Below are positions 2,925 through 62,567 of a stretch of 64,000 bases of DNA, one piece after another. The translations under genes and the position numbers were made by a program. Origin of the DNA: a virus; the IMG/VR virus record IMGVR_UViG_3300029931_000011, one strand, 5' to 3'. The notes beneath the pieces were generated by a model. That model did not search any database. It was not told the origin of the DNA and saw only the letters and a program-made list of their open reading frames with translations. Position 1 is the first letter of the stretch; the number at the start of each line of letters is the position of its first letter.

Positions 2925-3146
2925 CGCTTGCCTCCATCTCGGGTCTCGGTCTGCATCGCGTCTCCCTCGGTTGCTCTCGTGGTGAGCCGACGACGTGTCA
3001 CCGTCGCCGGCCCGGGCCGCCACGCTCGACATGGGCGGCCTTGTCGCCGTGCCTACGTTGAGGCGCGCGCACCGCGCTGCGGTACTGACGAGTCGGGACC
3101 GAGCCCGACCTCCTCGATTTGGTTCGAGTCGTCCATGGTGGTCACC

Positions 3147-3800
3147 TCAGAAGCGACGAAGCGCGCGAGCGATCGGCGACGGCTCGTGCGCGAGATCGGC
3201 GGTCGCGAACGGGATGTCGTCGTCGGGCCCGCCCCCGCCGTAGCTCGAGCCGGGCGCGTTCGGGTGCGCGTCGCGGCGCGGCGGCGGCGCGGTGCGGTTG
3301 GGCGGCGGCGCCGCCGACCGCTGCTGCTGGCCGCCTCCGTTGCCGCCGATCTTGCTCTTCATCTTGCGCGCGAAGTCGAGCACCTCAGCATCCGTCATCG
3401 CATTGCCCTTGAGGTCGACCTTCACCGCCCCGATGCGATTCACCCACTTCACCTTCGACCGCCACTTGCCGTCGTTGCCGAGCTTGAACTCGCGCACGAG
3501 CGACACCTCGCTGGCGCACGCACCGCCGTCGACGATCGCGGGGAGCTCGGAGAGGTCGTCTCCGGTCCACCCGCACGTGCGGAGACCGTCGATCGTGTAC
3601 TCGTAGAACGAACGGCCCTTGCTGCTGACGTCGTCCGAGAGCGAGGCGAACCACGTCTCGTACTTGCCGGCGTCCTCGCCGTCGAGGATCTTGAAGCGGC
3701 CGACGAGCTGCGGACGACGCACGCCCTCGTACTCGTCCCAGCCGAACTGGACGCCGCGCAGAACGCCGCGGCAGCGGATCTCGTAGGTGTCATTGCTCAT
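3147..3800 (-). CDS. SSB-like single-strand DNA-binding protein (recombination module)
   Basis: Trimmed to ATG 3800 (ATGA overlap with upstream stop 3797). A Gly/Pro-rich linker is followed by DDDIPF, the acidic tip motif of bacterial SSB, here followed by 24 more residues. Adjacent to the Sak4-like ATPase and the exonuclease. Confidence 0.75.
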   Translation of the reverse strand: MSNDTYEIRCRGVLRGVQFGWDEYEGVRRPQLVGRFKILDGEDAGKYETWFASLSDDVSSKGRSFYEYTIDGLRTCGWTGDDLSELPAIVDGGACASEVSLVREFKLGNDGKWRSKVKWVNRIGAVKVDLKGNAMTDAEVLDFARKMKSKIGGNGGGQQQRSAAPPPNRTAPPPRRDAHPNAPGSSYGGGGPDDDIPFATADLAHEPSPIARALRRF

Positions 3801-4966
3801 GGCGCGGTCTCCTCGGTGCTGGTCTCGGTCTCGGGGTTGCTGGTGTCGGTGTTGTTCGCGGTGGTCTCGATCGGCGTCGACTGCTGGAGGCCGACGAGGT
3901 AGCGGTGCAGCGCGCTGGTGTCGTCGCCGGCGCGGGCCACGGCCTTGCGCATGGCCTCGACGTGGACCGGGCGCTCGTCGGCGGACATGAACAGCGTGCC
4001 GAGCCGGTCGAGCTCGGCCTCGATGCTCTTGCGCAGGCCGTCGGGGCTCATCGAGTAGAGCGCCTCGAGTGCGTCTGCGAACGGTGCCCACTGCGCCTCG
4101 CTGGCCAGATCGATCTCCGACGGCATCGGCAGCGAGCACTTCGCCGCCCAGGTCGTCTTGCGCTGGAGGTGGATGATGCGGTTGCCCGAAACGCCGATCG
4201 CCTTACGGCCGATCTTCCGCACCGAGTCGTCGTAGGTGATGAACCCCACGACGTCGCACTTCTCGAGGAGCACGCCGGCGGCCTTCTCGTCGAGGCGCGG
4301 GCGGAAGATGTCGAAATCCTCGGCGAGCACCGACTTGTACTTGGCCACCACGGCGTGACCGAGGAGGATGACGTGCATCCCGGCCTTGAACCGGACGTCG
4401 TCGAGGCGCCGCACGAGGACGCGCCACATCTGGACGGCGATCTTCTGGCCGCTCGAGTAGCCGAAGTCCTCGATGTTCTCGATCTCCTTCCCCTCCTTGT
4501 TGCGGTGCCCGCGGGCCCGAGCGTCCTCGACGATGCGGTCGAAGATGAGCTGCTCGAGCGCGGCCACGCCGTCGAGCACGACGGTCTTGTAGCCGTACTG
4601 CTTCGCGTTCACGACGAGGTCGTCGAGCGCGTCTTCGACCTCGGTGAGCGTGCGCGCCACCGTGCCCTCGTCGCCCTCGGCGGGGCGGAACGGGTAGCGA
4701 GTCACGTGGAGATGGCGGGTGCGGCCCTCGATGTCGAGGAAGATCGGAGACGGCGCGTCGGCAGCGAGGCTCGACTTGCCGATGCCCTCGTCGCCGTAGA
4801 ACCAGAACAGCTTCGGATCGCGTCGGGCGCCGGCCACGACGGCGCCGAGCTTGGACGCCTTCACGGGTGCCGGGGCCGCCGGCTTGGCGGTCTGCGTCGT
4901 GCCGGACGCAGGGCGGGCGCCGTTGGCGGGCGCGGGACGAGGGACGGGTGCGGTGTTGGTCGCCAT
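3797..4966 (-). CDS. Sak4-like RecA-fold ATPase (AAA_24-type)
   Basis: Trimmed to ATG 4966 (GGAGG upstream). Walker A GDEGIGKS and Walker B-like KTVVLDG. Family resemblance is from memory only. Confidence 0.8.
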   Translation of the reverse strand: MATNTAPVPRPAPANGARPASGTTQTAKPAAPAPVKASKLGAVVAGARRDPKLFWFYGDEGIGKSSLAADAPSPIFLDIEGRTRHLHVTRYPFRPAEGDEGTVARTLTEVEDALDDLVVNAKQYGYKTVVLDGVAALEQLIFDRIVEDARARGHRNKEGKEIENIEDFGYSSGQKIAVQMWRVLVRRLDDVRFKAGMHVILLGHAVVAKYKSVLAEDFDIFRPRLDEKAAGVLLEKCDVVGFITYDDSVRKIGRKAIGVSGNRIIHLQRKTTWAAKCSLPMPSEIDLASEAQWAPFADALEALYSMSPDGLRKSIEAELDRLGTLFMSADERPVHVEAMRKAVARAGDDTSALHRYLVGLQQSTPIETTANNTDTSNPETETSTEETAP

Positions 4967-6837: not shown

Positions 6838-7692
6838 TCAGGCCCCCTCCGTCGAAGCCGTCTGCTCGGCCGCGCACCTCTCGATGTCCTCCATCGCGCG
6901 CTCGTCGGTGGCGAAGAAGTGCGGCACGCGACCGGTGCTCGCGCGGTAGATCATCGCGCCCGCTTGCTGCGATCCGCACTCGCGCTCCAGCGCGGCGCCG
7001 GCCGGGCCGGCGAAGTGGATCGCCCAGCCAGCGCGGCAGTGCGTCGTACCGCACACGCCGCCCGAACCGTGCCACTGCGACATGTCGAGCACGCCGCCCT
7101 TGACGGTGACGGCGTCGAGGATACGAGCGTCGAGATTCTCGACGACGGGAACGTTCGGGTGGCGCTCACGGTACCGCCGCGCACGCTCGGCGAGCACTTC
7201 GCGCGTCGGCTCCTGGCGCACGTACGGCTCGGGCGGATCCGTCTTGTCGACGCCGCCTGGCAAGTTGATCGCGTCCGCGAGGTTGGCGTCCGCGAGGTTG
7301 GCGCCCGCGAGGTTGGCGCCCGCGAGGTCGGCGCGCGCGAGGTTGGCGTCCGCGAGGTCGGCGCCCGCGAGGTTGGCGCGCGCGAGGTTGGCGCCCGCGA
7401 GGTCGGCGCGCGCGAGGTTGGCGTCCGCGAGGTCGGCGCCCGCGAGGTTGGCGCCCGCGAGGTCGGCGCGCGCGAGGTTGGCGCCCGCGAGGTCGGCGCC
7501 CGCGAGGTTGGCGCCCGCGAGGTCGGCGCCCGCGAGGTCGGCGCCCGCGAGGTTGGCGCGCGATCCATCACCCTCGCCGTAGCGCCACGCTCGGTGCCTG
7601 GCTAGCACCTCGCTCAGCGCCTCGGCGAGTGAGGTGGCCGTATCGCTAGTGTAGAGCGCGACGTTCGTGAATCGGTTGCGGATGACGTACAT
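6838..7692 (-). CDS. pentapeptide-repeat protein with C-terminal Cys-containing domain
   Basis: Trimmed to ATG 7692 (MYVIRNRF). About 20 tandem A(D/N)LxG/A pentapeptides (ANLAGADLAGADLAGANLAGADL...). C-terminal domain contains CGTTHCRAGWAIHF. Confidence 0.9.
   Translation of the reverse strand: MYVIRNRFTNVALYTSDTATSLAEALSEVLARHRAWRYGEGDGSRANLAGADLAGADLAGANLAGADLAGANLARADLAGANLAGADLADANLARADLAGANLARANLAGADLADANLARADLAGANLAGANLADANLADAINLPGGVDKTDPPEPYVRQEPTREVLAERARRYRERHPNVPVVENLDARILDAVTVKGGVLDMSQWHGSGGVCGTTHCRAGWAIHFAGPAGAALERECGSQQAGAMIYRASTGRVPHFFATDERAMEDIERCAAEQTASTEGA
7271..7560. repeat. 15-bp tandem DNA repeat (cgcgaggtYggcgYc) encoding the pentapeptide repeats
   Basis: About 19 near-identical 15-bp units are visible directly in lines 7261-7560. 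They lie entirely inside CDS 6838..7692. Confidence 0.9.
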
Positions 7693-7694
7693 GA

Positions 7695-8237
7695 CTAGGC
7701 TGCCCCCTTCGGCGGAATCGGTCGGTCGTCGGCGCGCATCTCGTCGGCGATCTCGCCCAGGACGTTGCGCGCGTCGTTCACGTTGATCGATCGCTGGATG
7801 TGGTCGGCGAGCGCCTCGGGCGTCTCGCAGGTCGAGGCGGCTGCGGCGCGCTTGGCGTCGCGGGCGGCCATCGACTCGGCGATGTGGCGCCGCTGGCGAG
7901 CGAGTCGCGTGTCCAGCGGGATGACGTCGGCGCCGGCGGCCGTGACGCACGGGCACCTCGCCCCCGCCTCACCGTCCCCGACCGACCGCTGCCGCGTGTA
8001 CGGCCGCCCGTTGTCGTGCCACGTGATGAGCCCACGGTCCTCGAGCGCCGCCCACGTCTCGAACACCGTGAGCACGCCGAGGTTGCAGCCGGCGGGGTCG
8101 TAGATGGCACCATCGACACGACGCCAGCCGAGGCGGGTGAGCACGTCGGGGAGGAGGTCGACGCTGGCGTTGACGGCGAGCGGGATCGTGGGGACGCCGC
8201 GGGGCGGCGCCGTCTTGCGCGTGCGGGTGCGGGTCAC
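7695..8237 (-). CDS. hypothetical protein
   Basis: ORF 7695..8369 trimmed to GTG 8237 (GTGA overlap with upstream stop 8234). The protein-like part starts VTRTRTRKTAPPRGVPTIPLAVNASVDLLPDVLTRLGW... Confidence 0.65.
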   Translation of the reverse strand: MTRTRTRKTAPPRGVPTIPLAVNASVDLLPDVLTRLGWRRVDGAIYDPAGCNLGVLTVFETWAALEDRGLITWHDNGRPYTRQRSVGDGEAGARCPCVTAAGADVIPLDTRLARQRRHIAESMAARDAKRAAAASTCETPEALADHIQRSINVNDARNVLGEIADEMRADDRPIPPKGAA

Positions 8238-15970: not shown

Positions 15971-16951
15971 ATGGCGGCAGCGGTCACCCTCTCGGCCGAG
16001 TTCTTCGACGACCCATCGTTCGATCACCTCGGCGTGCTGCTCGGCATCGACCCCGATCTCGCTCGCATGAAGGTCGCGCGGCTGTGGTCGTGGCAGACCG
16101 AGCACTACAGCGAGGAGCGGCCGACGTACGTGATCCCGGAGGGGTTCGTGATCGGCAAGCTCGGGGCGAAGGGGCCGGCGGCCATGATCGAAGCCGGTCT
16201 CGCCGAGCGCCGCGATGGCGGCCTCTTCCTGCGCGGCACCGACAAGCTCACGAGCACCGGCGACACGCGCATCGGGTGGCTCGGGTCACGGCGAGCCGAC
16301 AAGGTCGCCGGCGGCAAGGCGCGGGCGGCACAGGCAGAGAAGATCGGAAGGGTCGGCGGCCGATTCACCAGCGGCGCACCAGCGGCGCACCAGCATGGCG
16401 CTGCTGGTCCAGCGGCGCACCAGCAGGCACCAGCAGGCACCAGCGGAACACCAGCGGCGACCACCAGCAGCGGCCAGCGGCCACCAGCTATCAGGGATCA
16501 GGGATCAGGATCTTCTTCTGGTTCTACGCGCGATCCTGGCGTGTACGCCTCCATCGCCGAGCTCGTGACGCTCGCCTATGCGCGCATGGGCGCGGCCAGG
16601 GAATCCATCGAGCCCGGCGCGCCTGCACTCCCACGCCTCAGCGAGCGCCCGCTCGTGGACCGCTTGCGCGCCACGCCGCCGGAACGCCGCGAGCGCGACC
16701 TCGTGCACTGCCTCGACGTTCTGATCGCCGAGGCGGAGCGCGACCGCTCGGTCAACAACCTCCGCATGGGCTACCTGGGCGGCGACCTCGCCTGGCCCGG
16801 ACTGCTCTCGAAGACCGTCGCCAGCGTTCGCGGACGCGACGGCCCCGGCGGTGACCGCTCATCGCGCTCATCACGCCAGCCCACGGGTGCCGCAGCCGGC
16901 GCCGACGCCCTCGAGATCCTCCGACGCCGCAAACAAGGCCAACCGCCATGA
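15971..16951 (+). CDS. putative replication initiator (O-like) with low-complexity linker
   Basis: Full ORF of 326 aa with GGAGG upstream. N- and C-terminal domains flank the linker APAAHQHGAAGPAAHQQAPAGTSGTPAATTSSG, whose DNA is an iteron-like array. Followed by a loader-like gene. The function is inferred. Confidence 0.6.
   Translation: MAAAVTLSAEFFDDPSFDHLGVLLGIDPDLARMKVARLWSWQTEHYSEERPTYVIPEGFVIGKLGAKGPAAMIEAGLAERRDGGLFLRGTDKLTSTGDTRIGWLGSRRADKVAGGKARAAQAEKIGRVGGRFTSGAPAAHQHGAAGPAAHQQAPAGTSGTPAATTSSGQRPPAIRDQGSGSSSGSTRDPGVYASIAELVTLAYARMGAARESIEPGAPALPRLSERPLVDRLRATPPERRERDLVHCLDVLIAEAERDRSVNNLRMGYLGGDLAWPGLLSKTVASVRGRDGPGGDRSSRSSRQPTGAAAGADALEILRRRKQGQPP
16366..16488. repeat. iteron-like array: 9 direct CACCAGC cores, mostly 10-11 bp apart
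   Basis: Cores start at 16366, 16377, 16388, 16418, 16428, 16438, 16449, 16462 and 16482. One inverted copy (GCTGGT) lies near 16404. Confidence 0.7.
16496..16512. other. three GATC sites within 17 bp, next to a relatively AT-rich stretch
   Basis: The sequence ggGATCagggGATCagGATCttcttctggttc was read directly. It lies immediately right of the iteron-like array. Confidence 0.6.
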
Positions 16952-41292: not shown

Positions 41293-41336
41293 CGTCGAGC
41301 ACCGTGCGCCCGCGTCCGTCGAGGATCCACATTCGG

Positions 41337-41408
41337 TAGCAGGGGCGAGAATCGAACTCGCTTCTGCTCGGGTATGAGCCGAGCGCGCAGCCGGAGCGCC
41401 TCCCTGCA
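41337..41408 (-). tRNA. tRNA with CAU anticodon (Met, or Ile2 if lysidine-modified), 72 nt
   Basis: Hand-folded cloverleaf: TGCAGGG AG GCGC TCCGGCT GCGC G CTCGG CTCATAC CCGAG CAGAA GCGAG TTCGATT CTCGC CCCTGCT A. All stems are Watson-Crick except position 1-72 (T-T). U33, A37 and G53-C61 are present. Position 8 is A, not U. Confidence 0.75.
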
Positions 41409-56529: not shown

Positions 56530-56765
56530 TGGAGCCCCGCGAGCTGACGGTCCTGCGCGAGAGCGGCGAGCACATCGCGCAGTTCTTCTCCTACGCCCAC
56601 CTACCCGAGAAGATGCAGGCGGTCTCGCGGCCGTTCGCCGAGCTGGCGGCCACGGTCATCGAGACGTGCCCGCGGAACCCGGAGCGCACGGTGGCGCTGC
56701 GGAAGCTCCTCGAGGCCAAGGACGCAGCGGTGCGGGCGTTCATCGCGAAGGACGTGCCGCGGTGA
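56529..56765 (+). CDS. hypothetical protein
   Basis: ATG 56529 at a TGATG junction. Translation: MEPRELTVLRESGEHIAQFFSYAHLPEKMQAVSRPFAELAATVIETCPRNPERTVALRKLLEAKDAAVRAF. Confidence 0.7.
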   Translation: MEPRELTVLRESGEHIAQFFSYAHLPEKMQAVSRPFAELAATVIETCPRNPERTVALRKLLEAKDAAVRAFIAKDVPR

Positions 56766-57250
56766 GCGACCTGCCCGAGTACAAGCTCGAGGGCTACGCG
56801 TCCGCCGGTGACGTGCTGCAGCTGCACCCGGATGGCGTGCTGCGCCGCAAGCCGCCGACCCCTCCGCCTGTGCGCGAGGACCTCGGCACGCACACGTGCG
56901 GGCGCCGCACCGAGGACGGTGTGCCGCCAGACGGGCGGCCGGGGCCCGACACGTGGCGCGAGCGCCCGGGTGAGCTGCCGTCCTGCTCGTACTGCGGCTC
57001 GATGCACCCGAACGAATTCATGCGCATCGCCGAGGGCGGCGTGCATGAGCTCGGCCCCACCGACAAGAGCTACAAGGTCTACGTCGATAGCCACCGGCCG
57101 TCGAAGTTCTACTTCCAGCACCTCACGCTCGAGCAGCGGCACCGGTTCATCGAGCTGCTGAACGCGGGCACGATGAAGATCGGCTTCCCGGGCCGGTTCT
57201 ACTCGCGACCGTTCTTCGTGCAGTACTCGAAGCCGGCCGAGGGCGCCTAA
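56762..57250 (+). CDS. hypothetical protein
   Basis: GTG 56762 in a GTGA overlap. 162 aa. Contains CSYCGSMHPNEF. Confidence 0.7.
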   Translation: MSDLPEYKLEGYASAGDVLQLHPDGVLRRKPPTPPPVREDLGTHTCGRRTEDGVPPDGRPGPDTWRERPGELPSCSYCGSMHPNEFMRIAEGGVHELGPTDKSYKVYVDSHRPSKFYFQHLTLEQRHRFIELLNAGTMKIGFPGRFYSRPFFVQYSKPAEGA

Positions 57251-57352: not shown

Positions 57353-57748
57353 GTGATGGAGGCGGTCGCCGGTCTCGTCGTCCTCGCGGTCATCCTCGGC
57401 GGCACCGTCACCGCGGTGGTGCTCGCGTACCGCCAGGCGCTCGCCGACCGGGACGCGCGCCGGGTGGCCGAGGTCGAGCGCGCAGAGATCGCTGGCGAGT
57501 TGCGCCTCACCGAAGCCGCCCTGGAGACGAGCGAACGCTTCCGCCTCGCGGAGAAGTCCCGAGGCGACGCACTGGAGGAGGAGCTTGCCGATGCTGACCG
57601 TGCTGCGATTGCCGATCCTGACCCTGGTGCTCGTCGTCGCGTGCTCGCGCGGTGGAGGGCGTCCCTCGACACCGCAGCCGCCTCGGCCCGTGCTGGTCGA
57701 GACGCCGGGCCTGTGTCTGACCCAGCAGCCGCCGATGCCGACCCCTGA
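57353..57748 (+). CDS. i-spanin (Rz-like)
   Basis: Full ORF of 131 aa. N-terminal TM segment EAVAGLVVLAVILGGTVTAVVLAY, then a charged coiled coil. Contains the o-spanin gene start in another frame. Confidence 0.75.
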   Translation: MMEAVAGLVVLAVILGGTVTAVVLAYRQALADRDARRVAEVERAEIAGELRLTEAALETSERFRLAEKSRGDALEEELADADRAAIADPDPGARRRVLARWRASLDTAAASARAGRDAGPVSDPAAADADP

Positions 57749-57881
57749 GCTACTTGCCATCGCCGACGAAGGGACGCCGACCCCGGACCAGGAGGCGCTC
57801 TTGTGGACGTACCTGGAGGCGGTGGAGTCGTACGCATGGCGGGCGTGGAAGCTCTGCGGGCGAAGGGCGGTGGAGAGGTGA
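57591..57881 (+). CDS. o-spanin (Rz1-like lipoprotein), overlapping the i-spanin gene
   Basis: ATG 57591 with GGAGGAGGAG upstream. MLTVLRLPILTLVLVVAC lipobox, Pro-rich mature part. Confidence 0.75.
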   Translation: MLTVLRLPILTLVLVVACSRGGGRPSTPQPPRPVLVETPGLCLTQQPPMPTPELLAIADEGTPTPDQEALLWTYLEAVESYAWRAWKLCGRRAVER

Positions 57882-58228
57882 GAGACGCCGTCGAGGCCAT
57901 GGTGGGCACGGTACTCGTCATCCTGCTCCTGCTCGAGATGATCGCGGTCGCGTCGTGGCTGGGCGCCTGCAACCGCACCGTCGAGTACCCGGAGCCGCAA
58001 CCGTGCCCCGCGCTCGCCAAGCTACCGACCGGCGAATTGGTTCGGGTCCCCGCTGAACCGTCATGCCCGCTGCCGGGTCCGAGACCGGAGCCCACGCTGG
58101 CGGCATCAGTCGAGCCGGCGGACGTGATCTACGCGGCGACGATGACCGTGCTGGACCTCTCGCGATGGGGAGACGAGGTCGAGCTCTACGCCGGGTGTGT
58201 GGCGGCGCTGCCGGAGGGTGAGCCGTGA
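57878..58228 (+). CDS. second proline-rich lipoprotein
   Basis: GTG 57878 (GTGA overlap) or ATG 57899. Lipobox in MVGTVLVILLLLEMIAVASWLGAC, then PEPQPCPALAKLPTG... Confidence 0.6.
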   Translation: MRDAVEAMVGTVLVILLLLEMIAVASWLGACNRTVEYPEPQPCPALAKLPTGELVRVPAEPSCPLPGPRPEPTLAASVEPADVIYAATMTVLDLSRWGDEVELYAGCVAALPEGEP

Positions 58229-58362
58229 CGATCGGGCTTTTCATCGTCGGCGCTATCGCCTTCGTCGTGATGCTCGGCGCTGGCGGCTACTGGCTCGTGC
58301 GCACGATCGCCGGCCCGAACGATGTGATGGACCGCGATCGGGATGGGGACATCTACGAATGA
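58225..58362 (+). CDS. small single-TM protein (holin/antiholin-class candidate)
   Basis: Own translation from GTG 58225 (GTGA overlap): VTIGLFIVGAIAFVVMLGAGGYWLVRTIAGPNDVMDRDRDGDIYE*. Confidence 0.45.
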   Translation: MTIGLFIVGAIAFVVMLGAGGYWLVRTIAGPNDVMDRDRDGDIYE

Positions 58363-58583
58363 TGGCCCCGCGCGCGACCGCCCGCTTCCTCCTCGCGCTG
58401 ACCGCGTCCTCGGTCGTGTGGACCGCGCTGCTCGCGTGCCTCGGGTGGACCGCCGCCGCCGGGCTCTGCGCGGCCGGCGGCGTCTGCTCGCTCGTGGCCG
58501 CTCTCGTCCTGTGGCGCTGGGTGATGCCCTGGTGGTGGGGGATCGCCGCGGCGGGCGCGCTGTTCGACCGGAGGCGCAAGTGA
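58359..58583 (+). CDS. small multi-TM protein (holin candidate)
   Basis: ORF 58197..58583 trimmed to ATG 58359. Translation: MMAPRATARFLLALTASSVVWTALLACLGWTAAAGLCAAGGVCSLVAALVLWRWVMPWWWGIAAAGALF. Confidence 0.6.
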   Translation: MMAPRATARFLLALTASSVVWTALLACLGWTAAAGLCAAGGVCSLVAALVLWRWVMPWWWGIAAAGALFDRRRK

Positions 58584-58840
58584 CCGCCATCAAGCCCCGC
58601 AGCCACGCCGTCAACCCCACCGCCGAGGTGCAGTCGTTCCGCGTGCAGCAGAGCGCGCTGGCGACGCAGATCGCGATCGTCGAGGGGCGCGCGATGATCT
58701 GCGGCCACGACCCGATCGCCGGCCGCGACTTCACGATCACCATGACGCGGTTCTACGTGGATCGTCGCCCCGTCGAGGACGGCTTCGCGCCGGCCGACGA
58801 CGACCCGTTCACGTTCGACCTCAGCGACACGAAGGAGTAG
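58580..58840 (+). CDS. hypothetical protein
   Basis: GTG 58580 in a GTGA overlap. 86 aa. Confidence 0.6.
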   Translation: MTAIKPRSHAVNPTAEVQSFRVQQSALATQIAIVEGRAMICGHDPIAGRDFTITMTRFYVDRRPVEDGFAPADDDPFTFDLSDTKE

Positions 58841-58843
58841 CCC

Positions 58844-59638
58844 ATGCCCTCGTTCCTCTCCCGCCTTCTCGCGCCCTTCCTCGCGACGTGGCGCCAGCTC
58901 CTCACGCCGCCCGCCATCCCGTCCACCGACGTGCTGATGAGCGAGACGGAGTCCGAGATCGATGCCGACGTGATCGAGGCATGCGGCAAGCTGGCGATGG
59001 CACGCCTGACCGAACTGTGGCGGCAGGATATCTACGACCCTCGCCACACCGAGACGAGCGAGAACGCCGAGCGGTGCCGCGCTGCGATCCTCGACATCAT
59101 CCACAACGGCGGCGGGTGGCGGTGGATCAAGCGATACGGCGGCGACGGCGCACCCGCGGCAGAGCACGCCGAGTGGTGCGGCTTCACGCAGGCGTGGGCG
59201 TGGGCGCCGTGGATCCCCGAGGAGACGCGGAAGACGTGGTGGGCGTCGACGTACCGGCTCGATGCGTGGGCGCGCTATGCGGCGCTCGACATGAGCGGGA
59301 AGACCACGCCGAACCCGAAGCCGGCGCGCGGGCCCTTCCGCCTCTACGTCAAGCTCGACGAGCACTCGACGAAGCTTCCATTCCAGCCGCAGGCCGGTGA
59401 CATCCTGCTCGTGGGCGACGGGAAGCCTGACTACGGCGACCACGTCTGCGGCGTGCTCGGGTACGACGAGAAGCGGCGGATGTTTTCTACGTTAGAAGGA
59501 AACGGCGGCGGCCTAGGGCCAGATGGAAAGAAGCAGCACGGTCTAGTGAAGGCCGAACGCCCCCTTGGGGCGACGTCCGGTCACTCGTACCACGCGCGGC
59601 GCCTCATCCGGCTTTCGCCGTCGGACCTGATTCCGTAG
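58844..59638 (+). CDS. endolysin, CHAP/NlpC-P60-like cysteine peptidase/amidase
   Basis: Full ORF of 264 aa. Candidate catalytic residues are Cys (EHAEWCGFTQAW) and His (GDHVCGVLGY), then STLEGNGGG. The last ~50 codons are A/T3-rich. Confidence 0.75.
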   Translation: MPSFLSRLLAPFLATWRQLLTPPAIPSTDVLMSETESEIDADVIEACGKLAMARLTELWRQDIYDPRHTETSENAERCRAAILDIIHNGGGWRWIKRYGGDGAPAAEHAEWCGFTQAWAWAPWIPEETRKTWWASTYRLDAWARYAALDMSGKTTPNPKPARGPFRLYVKLDEHSTKLPFQPQAGDILLVGDGKPDYGDHVCGVLGYDEKRRMFSTLEGNGGGLGPDGKKQHGLVKAERPLGATSGHSYHARRLIRLSPSDLIP

Positions 59639-60310
59639 CCCACGCGCCGTCGTTGAGTACGTGGCTGACGGCTGACTCCGAGCAGCCGACCGCGTCGGAG
59701 ATGGCCTTGTAGCTGTTGCCTTCTGACCGCAGCGCGCGAATGCGTTCCGCCTTCTCCGGGGTGAGAACGACACCGCGACGATTCCTCGCCTGTGTCGTCG
59801 GCAGCGCCCACCGGCAGTTGCCCGGCTCGTAACCCTTGGTGCCGTCGACGCGATCGATGGAGTGACGCTTCGACGGGCGCGGGCCCATGTCGGCGAGGAA
59901 CGCCGCGAAGCTCTCGCGCCAGCGGTCGCACACGGTGATTCCGCGGCCGCCATAGTCCGCGTAGTCGCCGCAGTTCGTGTCGGCGCACCGCTGGCGCATC
60001 CGCTTCCACAGGCCGAAGTCCGGGTGGCGTCGCTCGTCAGCGCGAGCGAGCCCATGCCTGAACTTGACCCTCGAGATACGCTCAGCCGCGCCCTCGCGCT
60101 GAAAGCATCCGCACGAGCGGGTCTTGCCGTTGCGAAGGGTTCCTGCGCGGACCACTAGTTCGCCGCCGCAGTCGCAGCGGCAGTGCCATGCAGCGTCTTT
60201 CCACTCGGGCTTGGCGACGCGCTCGATGACGAGAAGCCGCCCGAACCGCTGACCGCGCAAGTCAATGAATGCCGGCATGTGACATCGATAGTCACGAATA
60301 CCGGCGGCGC
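59480..60310. mobile_element. putative homing cassette: recoded endolysin 3' end plus HNH-like gene
   Basis: Compositionally atypical (A/T-ending codons). Bounded on the right by the orphan native endolysin tail at 60311-60400. Boundaries are approximate. Confidence 0.5.
59604..60278 (-). CDS. HNH-like protein with zinc ribbon and C-terminal HTH, paralog 4 of 4
   Basis: Full ORF of 224 aa. Motifs CRCDCG...CGC, YGGRGITVCDRW, HSIDRVDGTKGYEPGNCRWAL and HTH-like SYKAISDAVGCSESAVSHVLNDGAW. Confidence 0.85.
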   Translation of the reverse strand: MPAFIDLRGQRFGRLLVIERVAKPEWKDAAWHCRCDCGGELVVRAGTLRNGKTRSCGCFQREGAAERISRVKFRHGLARADERRHPDFGLWKRMRQRCADTNCGDYADYGGRGITVCDRWRESFAAFLADMGPRPSKRHSIDRVDGTKGYEPGNCRWALPTTQARNRRGVVLTPEKAERIRALRSEGNSYKAISDAVGCSESAVSHVLNDGAWATESGPTAKAG

Positions 60311-60400
60311 AAGGCCGAGCGACCGCTGGGCGCGCGCTCGGGCCACGGCTACCACGCGCGACGGCTGATCCGCGTGGCCCCGCACGACCTTATCGGGTAG
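60311..60400 (+). pseudogene. orphan 3' end of the endolysin gene (29 codons + TAG)
   Basis: Translates KAERPLGARSGHGYHARRLIRVAPHDLIG*, against the endolysin C-terminus KAERPLGATSGHSYHARRLIRLSPSDLIP*. No start codon or upstream coding context. Confidence 0.7.
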
Positions 60401-60646
60401 CTAGCGCGCGTCGAAACAGCCGCGCGGGCACTCGTAGCCATCCTCGTACACCGTGCCGCAGCGGCCACACGTGACCATGCCGTGGTCGCGGCAGCGCGCG
60501 CAGAGGCGCGGCTCGGAGCCGAGGTGGACAGCCAGGAACTGCGGCCCTTCGATGCTGGGATCGGGCGCGGCCGCCGGGTTGTCGCGCCGCTCGCCGCAGG
60601 ACGGGCAGTGGAAGGAAACGGGGACGATCACGTTTCGCGCTCCCAT
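60401..60646 (-). CDS. hypothetical zinc-ribbon protein
   Basis: Full ORF of 81 aa. Motifs CPSCG...CARC...CGRCG...CPRGC. Confidence 0.65.
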   Translation of the reverse strand: MGARNVIVPVSFHCPSCGERRDNPAAAPDPSIEGPQFLAVHLGSEPRLCARCRDHGMVTCGRCGTVYEDGYECPRGCFDAR

Positions 60647-60987
60647 GATGCTGGCTGCGGTCGCGCGGCTGTGTCGAGGTCGATGTTCTCGAATGCCGTG
60701 TGCTCCTCGGGACGGATGAGTACCTGCACGAAGTCATCGTCGACGTCCTCGGGCTCGATCGCGGCGCGCACTACAGCGACAAGGTTCTCGACGTCGAGGT
60801 GATTGACGGCACCGACGAGAACGCGCCCGTTCATGATCTTCGACCCGTCGTGTGCATGGTCGGCGACGGCGAAGAGGCGAACGCTTTGGCTCTCCCACAG
60901 CGCGGTGTTGATGCGATCGATCATCCGCTGCTCGACCTCGGGGTCGCCGGACGGGATCGCGACGATGACGTCGGTGACGCGGCTCAT
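60628..60987 (-). CDS. hypothetical protein
   Basis: ORF 60628..61197 trimmed to ATG 60987 (ATGA overlap). 119 aa. Confidence 0.7.
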   Translation of the reverse strand: MSRVTDVIVAIPSGDPEVEQRMIDRINTALWESQSVRLFAVADHAHDGSKIMNGRVLVGAVNHLDVENLVAVVRAAIEPEDVDDDFVQVLIRPEEHTAFENIDLDTAARPQPASWERET

Positions 60988-61535
60988 CGCTCCCTCGGTG
61001 GTAGCACGGCGCCCTGGCGTACGACGGCGCGCGGCCGCTGCCATGTCCACGGCACGTGAGCGTGCCGCTCCACGAGACCCATGATCTCGAGCTGGGACAG
61101 GGCATCCATGAGGGCGTCCGTGGACGGCCGCTCGGATTCGACGAAGCGGTCGGCGATCTCGTCGAGACCGAAGGCGAAGTCGCCGAGAATGAACCACACC
61201 TCGAAGACGATGCCGCCCTTCGCCTTCAGGCGTTCCGCGATCTCGCGATCCCGGCTGCGGTCCGGGCGGTTGCCGCGCACGAGCCTCGGCGGCCCTGGCG
61301 GCTCCACCTCATCGACCGCCGCCTGCAGCGCCGCGATCACCTCGCGGGCCTTGGCGGGGGAGAGCCACACGCCAGCGGCCTCGTAGTCCTCGTGCACGCT
61401 CAGCATGATCGGAGACGACGGCCCAGGGCAGTCGCGCGCGCGAGGCTCGCCAGCCGCGAAGTCGGCGAGCGTCTCGACCGTCACCTCATGCTCGTGGTCG
61501 GCGGGGCGGCCGTCGGGGATCTTGATGGTGGTCAT
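60984..61535 (-). CDS. hypothetical protein with winged-helix-like C-terminus
   Basis: Full ORF of 183 aa. C-terminal STDALMDALSQLEIMGLVERH. Confidence 0.75.
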   Translation of the reverse strand: MTTIKIPDGRPADHEHEVTVETLADFAAGEPRARDCPGPSSPIMLSVHEDYEAAGVWLSPAKAREVIAALQAAVDEVEPPGPPRLVRGNRPDRSRDREIAERLKAKGGIVFEVWFILGDFAFGLDEIADRFVESERPSTDALMDALSQLEIMGLVERHAHVPWTWQRPRAVVRQGAVLPPRER

Positions 61536-61897
61536 GCTGGCGCTCCTCGGTACGTGTCGAATCCCTCGAACCCTCGATCACGCAGCCTGTTCACGACGAG
61601 CTTCTCGATCGCGGCCTCGTGCGCAGCTCGGCTGTCGGTGAGCTGCCCGAGCAGCGTGGGCACGGTGTCGAGGTTGATCGTCTCGGCGGCCCGCTGGCCT
61701 GCGAAGCAGCCGTGCGCCTCGACGGTGAGCACGGAGGTGCGGCGCGCGATCTCGCCCCGCTCGGGGTCGCCGGGCTCGGAGTAGATAACGCCGCTCACCT
61801 CGCAGTACGCGCCGCACGCGCGGCACCGGGTGTAGGCGGTCGGGCCTTGGACCTCGATGGTGTCGGGGATCTGGATCGCGTCGTCGGGCATGGTCAT
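61532..61897 (-). CDS. hypothetical protein
   Basis: Full ORF of 121 aa with an ATGA overlap with the next gene. Confidence 0.75.
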   Translation of the reverse strand: MTMPDDAIQIPDTIEVQGPTAYTRCRACGAYCEVSGVIYSEPGDPERGEIARRTSVLTVEAHGCFAGQRAAETINLDTVPTLLGQLTDSRAAHEAAIEKLVVNRLRDRGFEGFDTYRGAPA

Positions 61898-61902
61898 CCT
61901 CC

Positions 61903-62127
61903 TCAGTCAAGCGTCAGCGTCTTCAGGTCGAGTCGCACCGCTTCCCGCGCGACGGCGTAGCGTTCGGCATGGAACGGCGGCTCGGTTGGCGACGGCATGT
62001 TCTTCACGAACCACGTGCAGCGTACCGCTACGGCGGCAGAGCACGTCGGGCACTCGACACCGAGCGCCGCCATCGGCGTCAGAATCTCGGTGAGGCGCGC
62101 GAGGGCGCGGTCTTTTGCATCTGCCAT
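61903..62127 (-). CDS. hypothetical small Cys protein
   Basis: ORF 61903..62244 trimmed to ATG 62127 (AGGAG 5 nt upstream). Translation starts MADAKDRALARLTEILTPMAALGVECPTCSAAVAVRCTW... Confidence 0.6.
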   Translation of the reverse strand: MADAKDRALARLTEILTPMAALGVECPTCSAAVAVRCTWFVKNMPSPTEPPFHAERYAVAREAVRLDLKTLTLD

Positions 62128-62153: not shown

Positions 62154-62567
62154 GTGAGAACGTGCTCGACCTGCGGCTGCCGCGCGCCGCTCTGCCGTGA
62201 GTGCTGCGATGCCGCGCTCGACCAGTTCCGAGGCGTCGCGGCACTGCGCGGGCTGCTCCTCGGCGAGTCCGCGCGTACGCGTCGCCCGAGCAGCCCGCCG
62301 ACGGAGGCCGAAGCCCGCGAGAAGGTCCGCGACCTCGCCGCCGGCGACGAGCGCCTGGTCGAGCTGCTCGCGCGCGTCTGCGCCGACGCGGCCGCGCTCG
62401 AGTACGCCGAGCCGACGCAGCGGCCGGGCGGGGTGGCGTTCACCGTCGGGTGCGAGGCGTCGCATCAGCTGACCAGCGGCAGGAAGGTGCGCGCGGATCT
62501 GTCGCCGAGTTGGCGCGGCGAGAAGCGAGCGCCCGCCCACTCCGCCCATGGGATGCGCTTGTCGTAG
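62154..62567 (+). CDS. hypothetical Cys-rich protein on the opposite strand
   Basis: ORF of 137 aa from GTG 62154 (CSTCGCRAPLCRECC...). More protein-like than the two minus-strand shadow frames. No clear RBS. The last ~100 nt overlap the radical SAM gene end. Confidence 0.5.
   Translation: MRTCSTCGCRAPLCRECCDAALDQFRGVAALRGLLLGESARTRRPSSPPTEAEAREKVRDLAAGDERLVELLARVCADAAALEYAEPTQRPGGVAFTVGCEASHQLTSGRKVRADLSPSWRGEKRAPAHSAHGMRLS

Follow-up and report, generated by a model that had tools for sequence, protein, structure and literature searches.

Introduction

Mobile endonuclease open reading frames (ORFs) that bring in a new C-terminus for the gene they enter have been described from fungal mitochondria, where the native C-terminus is found downstream of the inserted one (PMC3630166). 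Examples include atp6 of Allomyces macrogynus, atp6, atp9, cox2 and nad3 of a Glomus sp., atp9 of Rhizopus and cox2 of Mortierella, and the two copies at Glomus atp6 are 63.5% identical in nucleotides (nt) and 91% identical in amino acids (aa) (PMC3630166). Here we describe a comparable arrangement in a 64,000-nt stretch of viral DNA (IMG/VR record IMGVR_UViG_3300029931_000011; the whole stretch is called the window below), in which the gene for a predicted HNH-type nuclease lies antisense at the 3' end of a phage lysin gene, between two diverged copies of that gene's end. In our judgement it is probable that a free-standing homing-type HNH nuclease gene invaded the lysin 3' end as an 831-nt cassette (59480-60310) together with a substitute tail. 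The cassette substitutes the last 52 lysin codons in frame and strands the native last 30 codons beyond the nuclease gene.

Like the fungal mitochondrial ORFs, the element places an endonuclease ORF in the 3' part of a conserved gene, which an in-frame substitute C-terminus then completes. In both cases the downstream native C-terminus is nearer to relatives than the inserted one: here the stranded copy (copy B) is 0.75-0.80 identical to the alleles of contigs L001 and L007, and the inserted copy (copy A) 0.57-0.62. The two copies are 69% identical in nucleotides and 79% in amino acids, as against the 63.5% and 91% of Glomus atp6. The fungal nucleases are of the GIY-YIG or LAGLIDADG type, on the same strand as the host gene and often in phase with it, whereas the phage nuclease is HNH-type and antisense, has 35 nt in common with the substitute tail, and sits in the lysin gene of a double-stranded DNA phage. 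The phage element works like the Allomyces atp6 type and is not a member of it in the narrow sense.

Phages themselves offer further points of comparison. T4-like phages carry free-standing homing endonuclease genes (seg, mob) that cut naive alleles and co-convert the flanks (PMC2988022, PMC2790892). Mycobacteriophage lysis cassettes carry HNH insertions, such as gene 51 of Omega and gene 46 of Courthouse; in Omega the insertion deleted 35 bp and gave lysin A a new 3' end (PMC3706429). The element described here resembles the seg and mob genes in lying outside any intron or intein and in its sporadic distribution. Carrier alleles of the T4 genes are thought to be protected by sequence differences; those genes differ from the present element in usually lying between genes, and the nuclease activity of the latter is predicted by homology. 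To our knowledge, no T4 free-standing homing gene has been described as carrying a gene-end duplicate. With Omega and Courthouse the locus shares a free-standing HNH gene beside a lysin gene; there, however, same-strand intergenic insertions are typical, and a substitute tail with a stranded native one is not described. Group I introns with HNH genes are likewise HNH-type mobile elements that target the lysin gene and keep lysin function, but they do so by RNA splicing, whereas the phage element does so by a substitute gene end at the DNA level. Full-text searching of the literature found no phage description of a substitute tail combined with a stranded native tail, which is not proof of absence. 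The layout is known outside phages, and its HNH-type, antisense phage form with a 35-nt overlap is apparently undescribed.

The duplicated lysin end

The lysin ORF (58844-59638, plus strand) encodes 264 aa. Its codons 1-212 (58844-59479) are the native body of a CHAP-like peptidoglycan hydrolase, as delimited by the identity to relatives and by the fraction of codons ending in G or C (GC3). The body is followed in frame by the left end of the insert (59480-59548), a low-GC3 patch that encodes MFSTLEGNGGGLGPDGKKQHGLV with a conserved E-G-N motif inside, and then by copy A (59549-59638), the working tail of 29 codons plus stop. With copy A the ORF finishes on KAERPLGATSGHSYHARRLIRLSPSDLIP and a stop codon, continuing the lysin frame with every family-conserved residue. 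Copy B (60311-60400, plus strand) encodes KAERPLGARSGHGYHARRLIRVAPHDLIG in a single frame, closed by TAG, and is recognizable as the stranded native tail of 29 codons from its GC3 and from nuclease-free relatives. The copies are separated by 672 nt and are identical at 62 of 90 nt and 24 of 30 codons, the stop included; the 28 differences split 6/4/18 over codon positions 1, 2 and 3, and the longest identical run is 11 nt. A translated comparison of both flanks of the nuclease gene recovers the duplicate at E = 3.7e-13. By Nei-Gojobori counting, the proportion of synonymous differences (pS) is 0.69 and that of nonsynonymous differences (pN) 0.17, and because the divergence is thus mostly synonymous, most of it accumulated under protein-level constraint, as in functioning coding sequence. 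Copy B sits in a 43-aa ORF only and is part of no longer gene. Its TAG (60398-60400) abuts CTA at 60401-60403, the stop of a minus-strand, Cys-rich gene of 81 aa in the ORF listing (60401-60646), which converges on the lysin and marks its original end.

The sole long ORF between the copies is the nuclease gene (59604-60278, minus strand; 224 aa). Its end and the lysin end share a 3'-3' overlap of 35 nt (59604-59638), read directly from the sequence, which comprises the last 11 lysin codons and stop on one strand and, on the nuclease side, the stop, the 10 full codons before it and part of one more. A leader of 32 nt (60279-60310, minus strand) precedes the nuclease gene and forms the right end of the insert; its first ~24 nt, with the core ATAGTCACGAAT, are common to the relative L029, and the part adjacent to the orphan copy differs. 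The insert therefore measures 831 nt (59480-60310), made up of substitute lysin end, antisense HNH-type nuclease gene and leader. An initial annotation, made from the window's letters, had reported the duplicated lysin end, the preponderance of third-position differences, the contact of the copy B stop with the convergent stop at 60401, and a minus-strand gene with a 35-nt overlap as the only gene between the copies; all of these observations hold, with correct coordinates, and copy B has not turned out to belong to a longer gene.

The arrangement is real, not an assembly artefact, and is fixed in this phage as sampled: positions 58000-62000 of the window are 100% identical in three metagenome contigs from independent assemblies (Logan, ENA, JGI), and at least 24 contigs are listed as carrying this nuclease protein. 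SRR2082602, ERZ761604 and JGI 3300005689 are among the samples that contain the phage.

The nuclease gene and its product

The 224-aa protein matches phrog_374, annotated 'HNH endonuclease', at E 6e-62, and also phrog_3377, phrog_2081 and phrog_953, all with the same annotation. It comprises an N-terminal Cys-rich, zinc-finger-like region, a beta-beta-alpha nuclease core and a C-terminal helix-turn-helix, the last matching HTH_38/HTH_23 over residues 172-209. In the model of the domain (residues 80-172; predicted local distance difference test score, pLDDT, 92.8) a beta-beta-alpha element is formed by strands over HSIDR and CRWA and a helix over TTQARN. N153 is invariant, N165 nearly so, and H138 belongs to the consensus. 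Searched against BFVD, the domain has 89 fold matches at E <= 1e-3 (best 6e-12), several of them named HNH or homing endonuclease, and a protein of Mycobacterium phage Courthouse is among the best. The protein found no sequence match in the PDB, and its full-length model no meaningful match in a PDB fold search. On this homology we regard it as a predicted HNH-type DNA endonuclease, a family-level assignment.

The family is very large and scattered over unrelated contexts: it counts 7701 relatives in databases, and viral contigs contain at least 599 stretches that match it. In isolated-phage records the nuclease gene alone is matched at the DNA level, at ~70%. The gene is antisense to the lysin and free-standing, embedded in neither an intron nor an intein, and the lysin aligns colinearly with its relatives, with no intein-sized insert. 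Nuclease homology, the absence of an intron or intein, presence and absence among relatives, and co-conversion of the flank together point to a free-standing homing endonuclease gene.

The alternative that 59549-60310 is a self-splicing intron with a nuclease gene, and 60311-60400 the true last exon, takes some encouragement from the intact, usable frame of copy B and from the known occurrence of group I introns that carry HNH genes within lysin genes of phages (work cited in PMC3706429). We nevertheless find it scarcely credible, given that Rfam has no intron at E <= 1 on either strand over 58800-60700, that copy A keeps its frame and all family-conserved residues under purifying selection, and that the end of the nuclease gene lies within the coding sequence of copy A.

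Lysin alleles with and without the nuclease gene

Relatives place the left end of the insert precisely. Sliding nucleotide identity of the lysin to its closest alleles, those of L030, L001 and L007, is 0.85-0.92 over 59153-59473, falls to 0.57-0.70 from 59474 on and amounts to about 60-67% for the part that starts at 59480, and a codon alignment puts the switch between 59479 and 59485. On the far side of the nuclease gene, orphan copy B is native-like, with nucleotide identities of 0.80 to L007, 0.79 to the L029 orphan and 0.75 to L001; working copy A reaches only 0.57-0.62 with the same native-type tails (L007 0.62, L001 0.57). At synonymous sites copy A is closest to the tail of L028, which is also linked to a nuclease gene (pS 0.27, against 0.69 to copy B), and it groups loosely with the other nuclease-linked tails. 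The codons for R-P-L-G are CGC CCN CTT GG[GA] in all three nuclease-linked alleles (window, L028, L029) and CG[AG]/AGA CCG CT[CG] GG[CT] in five of six nuclease-free alleles, the exception being L003 with CGC CCG ATC GGG; the Leu codon CTT occurs only in nuclease-linked alleles. The working end accordingly looks like sequence travelling with the nuclease gene, not like a recoded copy of the phage's own tail, and the break at 59479/59480, together with a foreign-type lysin end of 159 nt linked to the nuclease gene, suggests co-conversion of the flank. A link between copy A and the lineage of copy B, drawn from a 'YH' signature and a 2-codon gap common to L029, was also considered and was rejected because 'YHARRLIR' is widespread in the family and because nucleotide and synonymous distances point elsewhere.

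Relatives in which the lysin runs uninterrupted to a convergent gene, as a cassette insertion would lead one to expect, do exist. In L001 the lysin stop overlaps the convergent gene, and in L030 it lies one base from the convergent stop. The window's convergent gene is homologous to neither of these convergent genes, so the lysin end is a boundary between modules.

A further comparison is between L029 and L001, two metagenomic phages that are 98.6% identical over a 573-nt flank. L029 carries a working tail, a nuclease gene (67% identical) and an orphan, and L001 carries none of these; measured against the L001 tail, identity is 94% for the L029 orphan and only 74% for the L029 working tail. 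L001 cannot be the product of repeat deletion from an L029-like genome, because its tail is orphan-like throughout. The comparison of these sequences thus indicates that the element was gained recently in this sister lineage. At the amino acid level the L029 working tail is 0.78-0.81 identical to window copy A and to L031, and 0.68 to its own orphan. L029 has the same arrangement of lysin and nuclease gene as the window, and in L028 (lysin 838-1623, nuclease 1589-2146) the overlap is again 35 nt. The L028 nuclease gene is without its N-terminal ~70 codons, lost to an adjoining recombinase module, the sort of decay expected of selfish nuclease genes at a late stage.

The nuclease gene is absent from L001, L007, L030, L002 and L031. 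HNH proteins that assist terminases are known in some cos phages, and the window's protein might by that precedent be a resident phage function, packaging-associated for example, and not a mobile element. Its absence from near-identical or close relatives (L001, L030, L007), its truncation in L028, and its antisense position at the lysin end, not near packaging genes, make this very improbable.

The low-GC3 patch

Within the lysin end, A/T-ending codons are limited to 59480-59548, where 11 of 23 codons end in A or T (GC3 0.52). This patch lies within the lowest 0.8% of 23-codon windows and holds one of the four TTA and two of the 26 CTA codons of the whole window. GC3 is 0.92 in the lysin body, 0.83 in copy A, 0.90 in orphan copy B and in the window's genes, and 0.76-0.81 in the nuclease genes. 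Of 20 lysin alleles examined, the window's shows the steepest fall in GC3 between body and tail. The patch differs from six nuclease-free alleles by a mean pS of 0.76, against 0.53 among those alleles. The low GC3 is not confined to the window, as by hand count 19 of 34 codons of the L029 working tail are G/C-ending and, relative to L001, 12 of 16 listed synonymous differences run from G/C to A/T. The initial annotation had drawn the region of A/T-ending codons over the last ~160 nt of the lysin; this stands for 59480-59548 and fails for 59549-59638 (GC3 0.83), whereas the usual G/C third-position bias that it saw in the orphan is present, and the profile across the junction is indeed not flat, dropping from body to patch.

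With gene GC3 at ~0.9, almost any new synonymous change makes an A/T-ending codon, and low GC3 therefore fits a burst of recent changes, such as selection to escape cutting would give. It also fits a stay in a lower-GC genome, in keeping with the lower GC3 of the nuclease genes themselves, and the two readings are inseparable here. A regulatory reading of the A/T-rich patch was dropped: a scan of 58600-60900 for promoters and terminators found none, and the fold of the minus-strand RNA across the patch (z = -0.93) indicates no structure.

These observations also bear on whether the lysin end was duplicated in place when the nuclease gene arrived, with copy A then diverging fast at synonymous sites, for instance if escape from cutting was selected. 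Each of copies A and B has the other as its best amino acid match (23 of 29), the low GC3 of the patch fits many recent changes away from ~0.9, and the L029 working tail shows the same tendency in its own GC3 and in the direction of its synonymous differences. But copy A is synonymously closest to the L028 tail and not to copy B, it has the CTT and CGC codons of other nuclease-linked alleles, the L029 working tail is nearer to window copy A and L031 than to its own orphan, and the orphan is without a native copy of the patch. We regard duplication in place as improbable on this balance.

Duplicated gene ends elsewhere in the nuclease family

The upstream and downstream flanks of nuclease relatives were compared at 124 distinct viral-contig loci. 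The window scored 22, L123 18 and L169 16; among 600 permuted flank pairs the 99th percentile was 12.5 and the highest score 18. The translated flank repeats from a first screen were mostly low-complexity artefacts of GC-rich DNA.

At L169 (1468-2140; IMGVR_UViG_2927808043_000001) the nuclease relative starts MFKKAERKQA, and so does the downstream P-loop gene (2105-2971); over these ten codons (30 nt) the two differ by seven synonymous changes, which mirrors the window arrangement at the 5' end. At L123 (1452-1479 and 2126-2153; IMGVR_UViG_3300045106_000019) the upstream gene ends in EMPPAFEGFF and the nuclease ORF in DMPPAFEGFM; both ends carry the overlapping stop and start of the next gene, so that a junction of ~28 nt, comprising gene end and ribosome site, is duplicated. 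At L048 (2823-4021; IMGVR_UViG_3300031576_000035) the 3' end of a Cys-rich gene (3533-4021) shares 71 nt with an antisense nuclease gene (2983-3603), and the translated screen found a diverged 26-aa copy of the Cys-rich gene's C-terminus on the other side of the nuclease gene (2823-2984). L048 is not confirmed by an uninterrupted relative, as the only relative found, L114, has a different C-terminus. Together these loci hint that members of the family may repeatedly bring along a diverged copy of the gene end that they displace.

They also speak to a competing account, that of ordinary illegitimate recombination between two related phages at a module boundary, with the nuclease gene as a passenger and the orphan as a by-product. 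The genes 3' of the lysin differ in every relative examined, which marks a recombination boundary; nuclease genes have been reported at exchange boundaries in phages in general (PMC10448857); and the nuclease function of the protein is predicted from homology. Yet the same nuclease gene, in the same position and with the same 3'-3' overlap, is found in three lysin lineages (window, L028, L029), the insert is tightly bounded around the nuclease gene, and flanks are duplicated around different genes in other family members. This account is accordingly unlikely in our estimation, though it is the strongest of the competitors.

The lysin, the lysis genes and other features of the window

No Pfam, PHROG or NCBIfam model matched the 264-aa lysin, and a PDB profile search gave spurious repeat-protein matches only. 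It has 158 metagenomic homologues, some with PF05257 CHAP or PF01471 PG_binding_1 by precomputed annotation of more distant homologues, and one of 13 close relatives has a CHAP match (E 0.0014). C112, H200 and N220 are invariant among close relatives and E218 is nearly so. No lysin match was found by tblastn in isolated-phage records, viral and genome collections yielded distant relatives only, and a metagenome scan gave one further close allele, L007. Just 5' of the lysin lie four small genes for membrane or lipoprotein-like products (57591-58583, plus strand). The first (57591-57881) has a lipobox-like signal, LVVAC, and overlaps the second (57836-58228), whose product has an N-terminal transmembrane (TM) segment; both are spanin-like. 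The other two are holin-like, one (58225-58362) encoding a 45-aa membrane protein with one TM segment and the other (58359-58583) a 74-aa membrane protein with 2-3. By inference these genes look like a Gram-negative lysis cassette, and 'endolysin' is a reasonable family-level designation for the 264-aa protein, which we hold as a prediction.

Several further features of the window were observed. An integrase module is swapped within one phage, with a serine recombinase in L026 (1-1162) and a tyrosine integrase in L025 and L027 (71-1549), on the window side beyond 63454; all three contigs are 100% identical to the window over 58000-62000 despite their different integration genes. Near the integrase genes, 63 nt at 62387-62449 are 92% identical to L028 (2072-2134) and 90% to L002 (11121-11182), against only ~70-75% elsewhere; this stretch may be the core of an attachment site, and ARAGORN finds no tRNA in it. 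The window's only tRNA is a tRNA-Met (anticodon CAT; 41335-41408, minus strand). Other low-GC3 23-codon stretches occur at 6838-7956 (minus strand; minimum 6/23), 15971-16951 (plus) and 56666-57250 (plus), and could be foreign insertions, wrongly called ORFs or further scars of mobile elements.

A possible route of invasion

How the cassette might have come to its present position can be pictured as follows. In a mixed infection the nuclease would cut a naive lysin allele, probably in a conserved stretch near the V-K-A-E-R-P-L-G codons, because the starts of the window orphan and the L029 orphan both fall there, within ~12 nt and beside differing leaders. The left end of the break would be repaired by homologous recombination with the donor's lysin body. 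The right end, with no homologous partner because downstream genes differ between lineages, would be joined without homology beyond the nuclease gene, stranding the recipient's remaining tail. Only products that restore a complete lysin would survive, which is why the nuclease gene would always travel with a tail, and the 35-nt overlap would reinforce that linkage. We hypothesize further that the divergence between copies A and B, in which identical runs are so short, would suppress deletion by repeat recombination, and that this divergence, together with the heavily synonymously substituted patch, would plausibly keep the nuclease from cutting the allele that carries its gene. Synonymous recoding as self-immunity is a plausible hypothesis.

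Earlier annotation of this DNA had already proposed a cassette of nuclease gene and replacement gene end that stranded the native tail, and each structural part of that proposal passed its comparative test. The further idea that the replacement end was recoded has survived in part: a foreign-type end is present, with recoding limited to 59480-59548, and the end is not the phage's own tail in recoded form.

A number of points weigh against invasion by a homing cassette. This phage itself was not found in a nuclease-free version, its best lysin match being 74% identical, and the gain is therefore seen in the L029/L001 pair and not in this genome. L029 is itself a single metagenomic contig of 1.8 kb, from sample JGI 3300063058, and in it an unexplained stretch of 118 nt (876-993), between the orphan stop and the convergent gene, replaces 27 nt of L001; this stretch has no match among the sequences compared, and the C-terminus of the convergent protein is altered as a result. 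The mutual best match of copies A and B in amino acids is awkward for a purely foreign origin of copy A, and the low-GC3 patch is not common to L028 and has no sampled donor. Lastly, no Pfam HNH family is matched at E <= 0.1 by the nuclease protein or by 42 relatives, and the best PDB fold match of the domain-only model, the HNH enzyme PacI, is not significant (E 0.25, TM-score 0.50).

Implications for phage genes and their nucleases

Introns and inteins are the two textbook routes by which a mobile element enters coding sequence. The present locus shows, in a clean and dated natural case, how an essential phage gene can take a selfish nuclease gene into its coding sequence with no splicing involved, and a substitute gene end at the DNA level would stand as a third route beside those two. 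A probable cut site and candidate immunity changes can be named from this locus, and the locus suggests that short diverged duplicates beside nuclease genes may serve as a signature for mapping homing sites in metagenomic phages. It is also a warning, for phylogenies and for enzyme engineering alike, that the 3' ends of lysins may be chimeric.

We propose tentatively, as a possibility well short of an expectation, that phage homing genes of this HNH family may, as a matter of routine, invade essential genes at the ends of their coding sequence with neither intron nor intein, each bringing along a copy of the displaced end that has diverged at synonymous sites. If this is true, a single duplicate would keep the host gene working, make the carrier uncuttable and be too diverged from the stranded copy for deletion. 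The stranded copy, for its part, would offer the sole homology on the right-hand side when the element next homes into phages with different downstream genes, and through the 3'-3' overlap, losing the nuclease gene would entail damage to the lysin.

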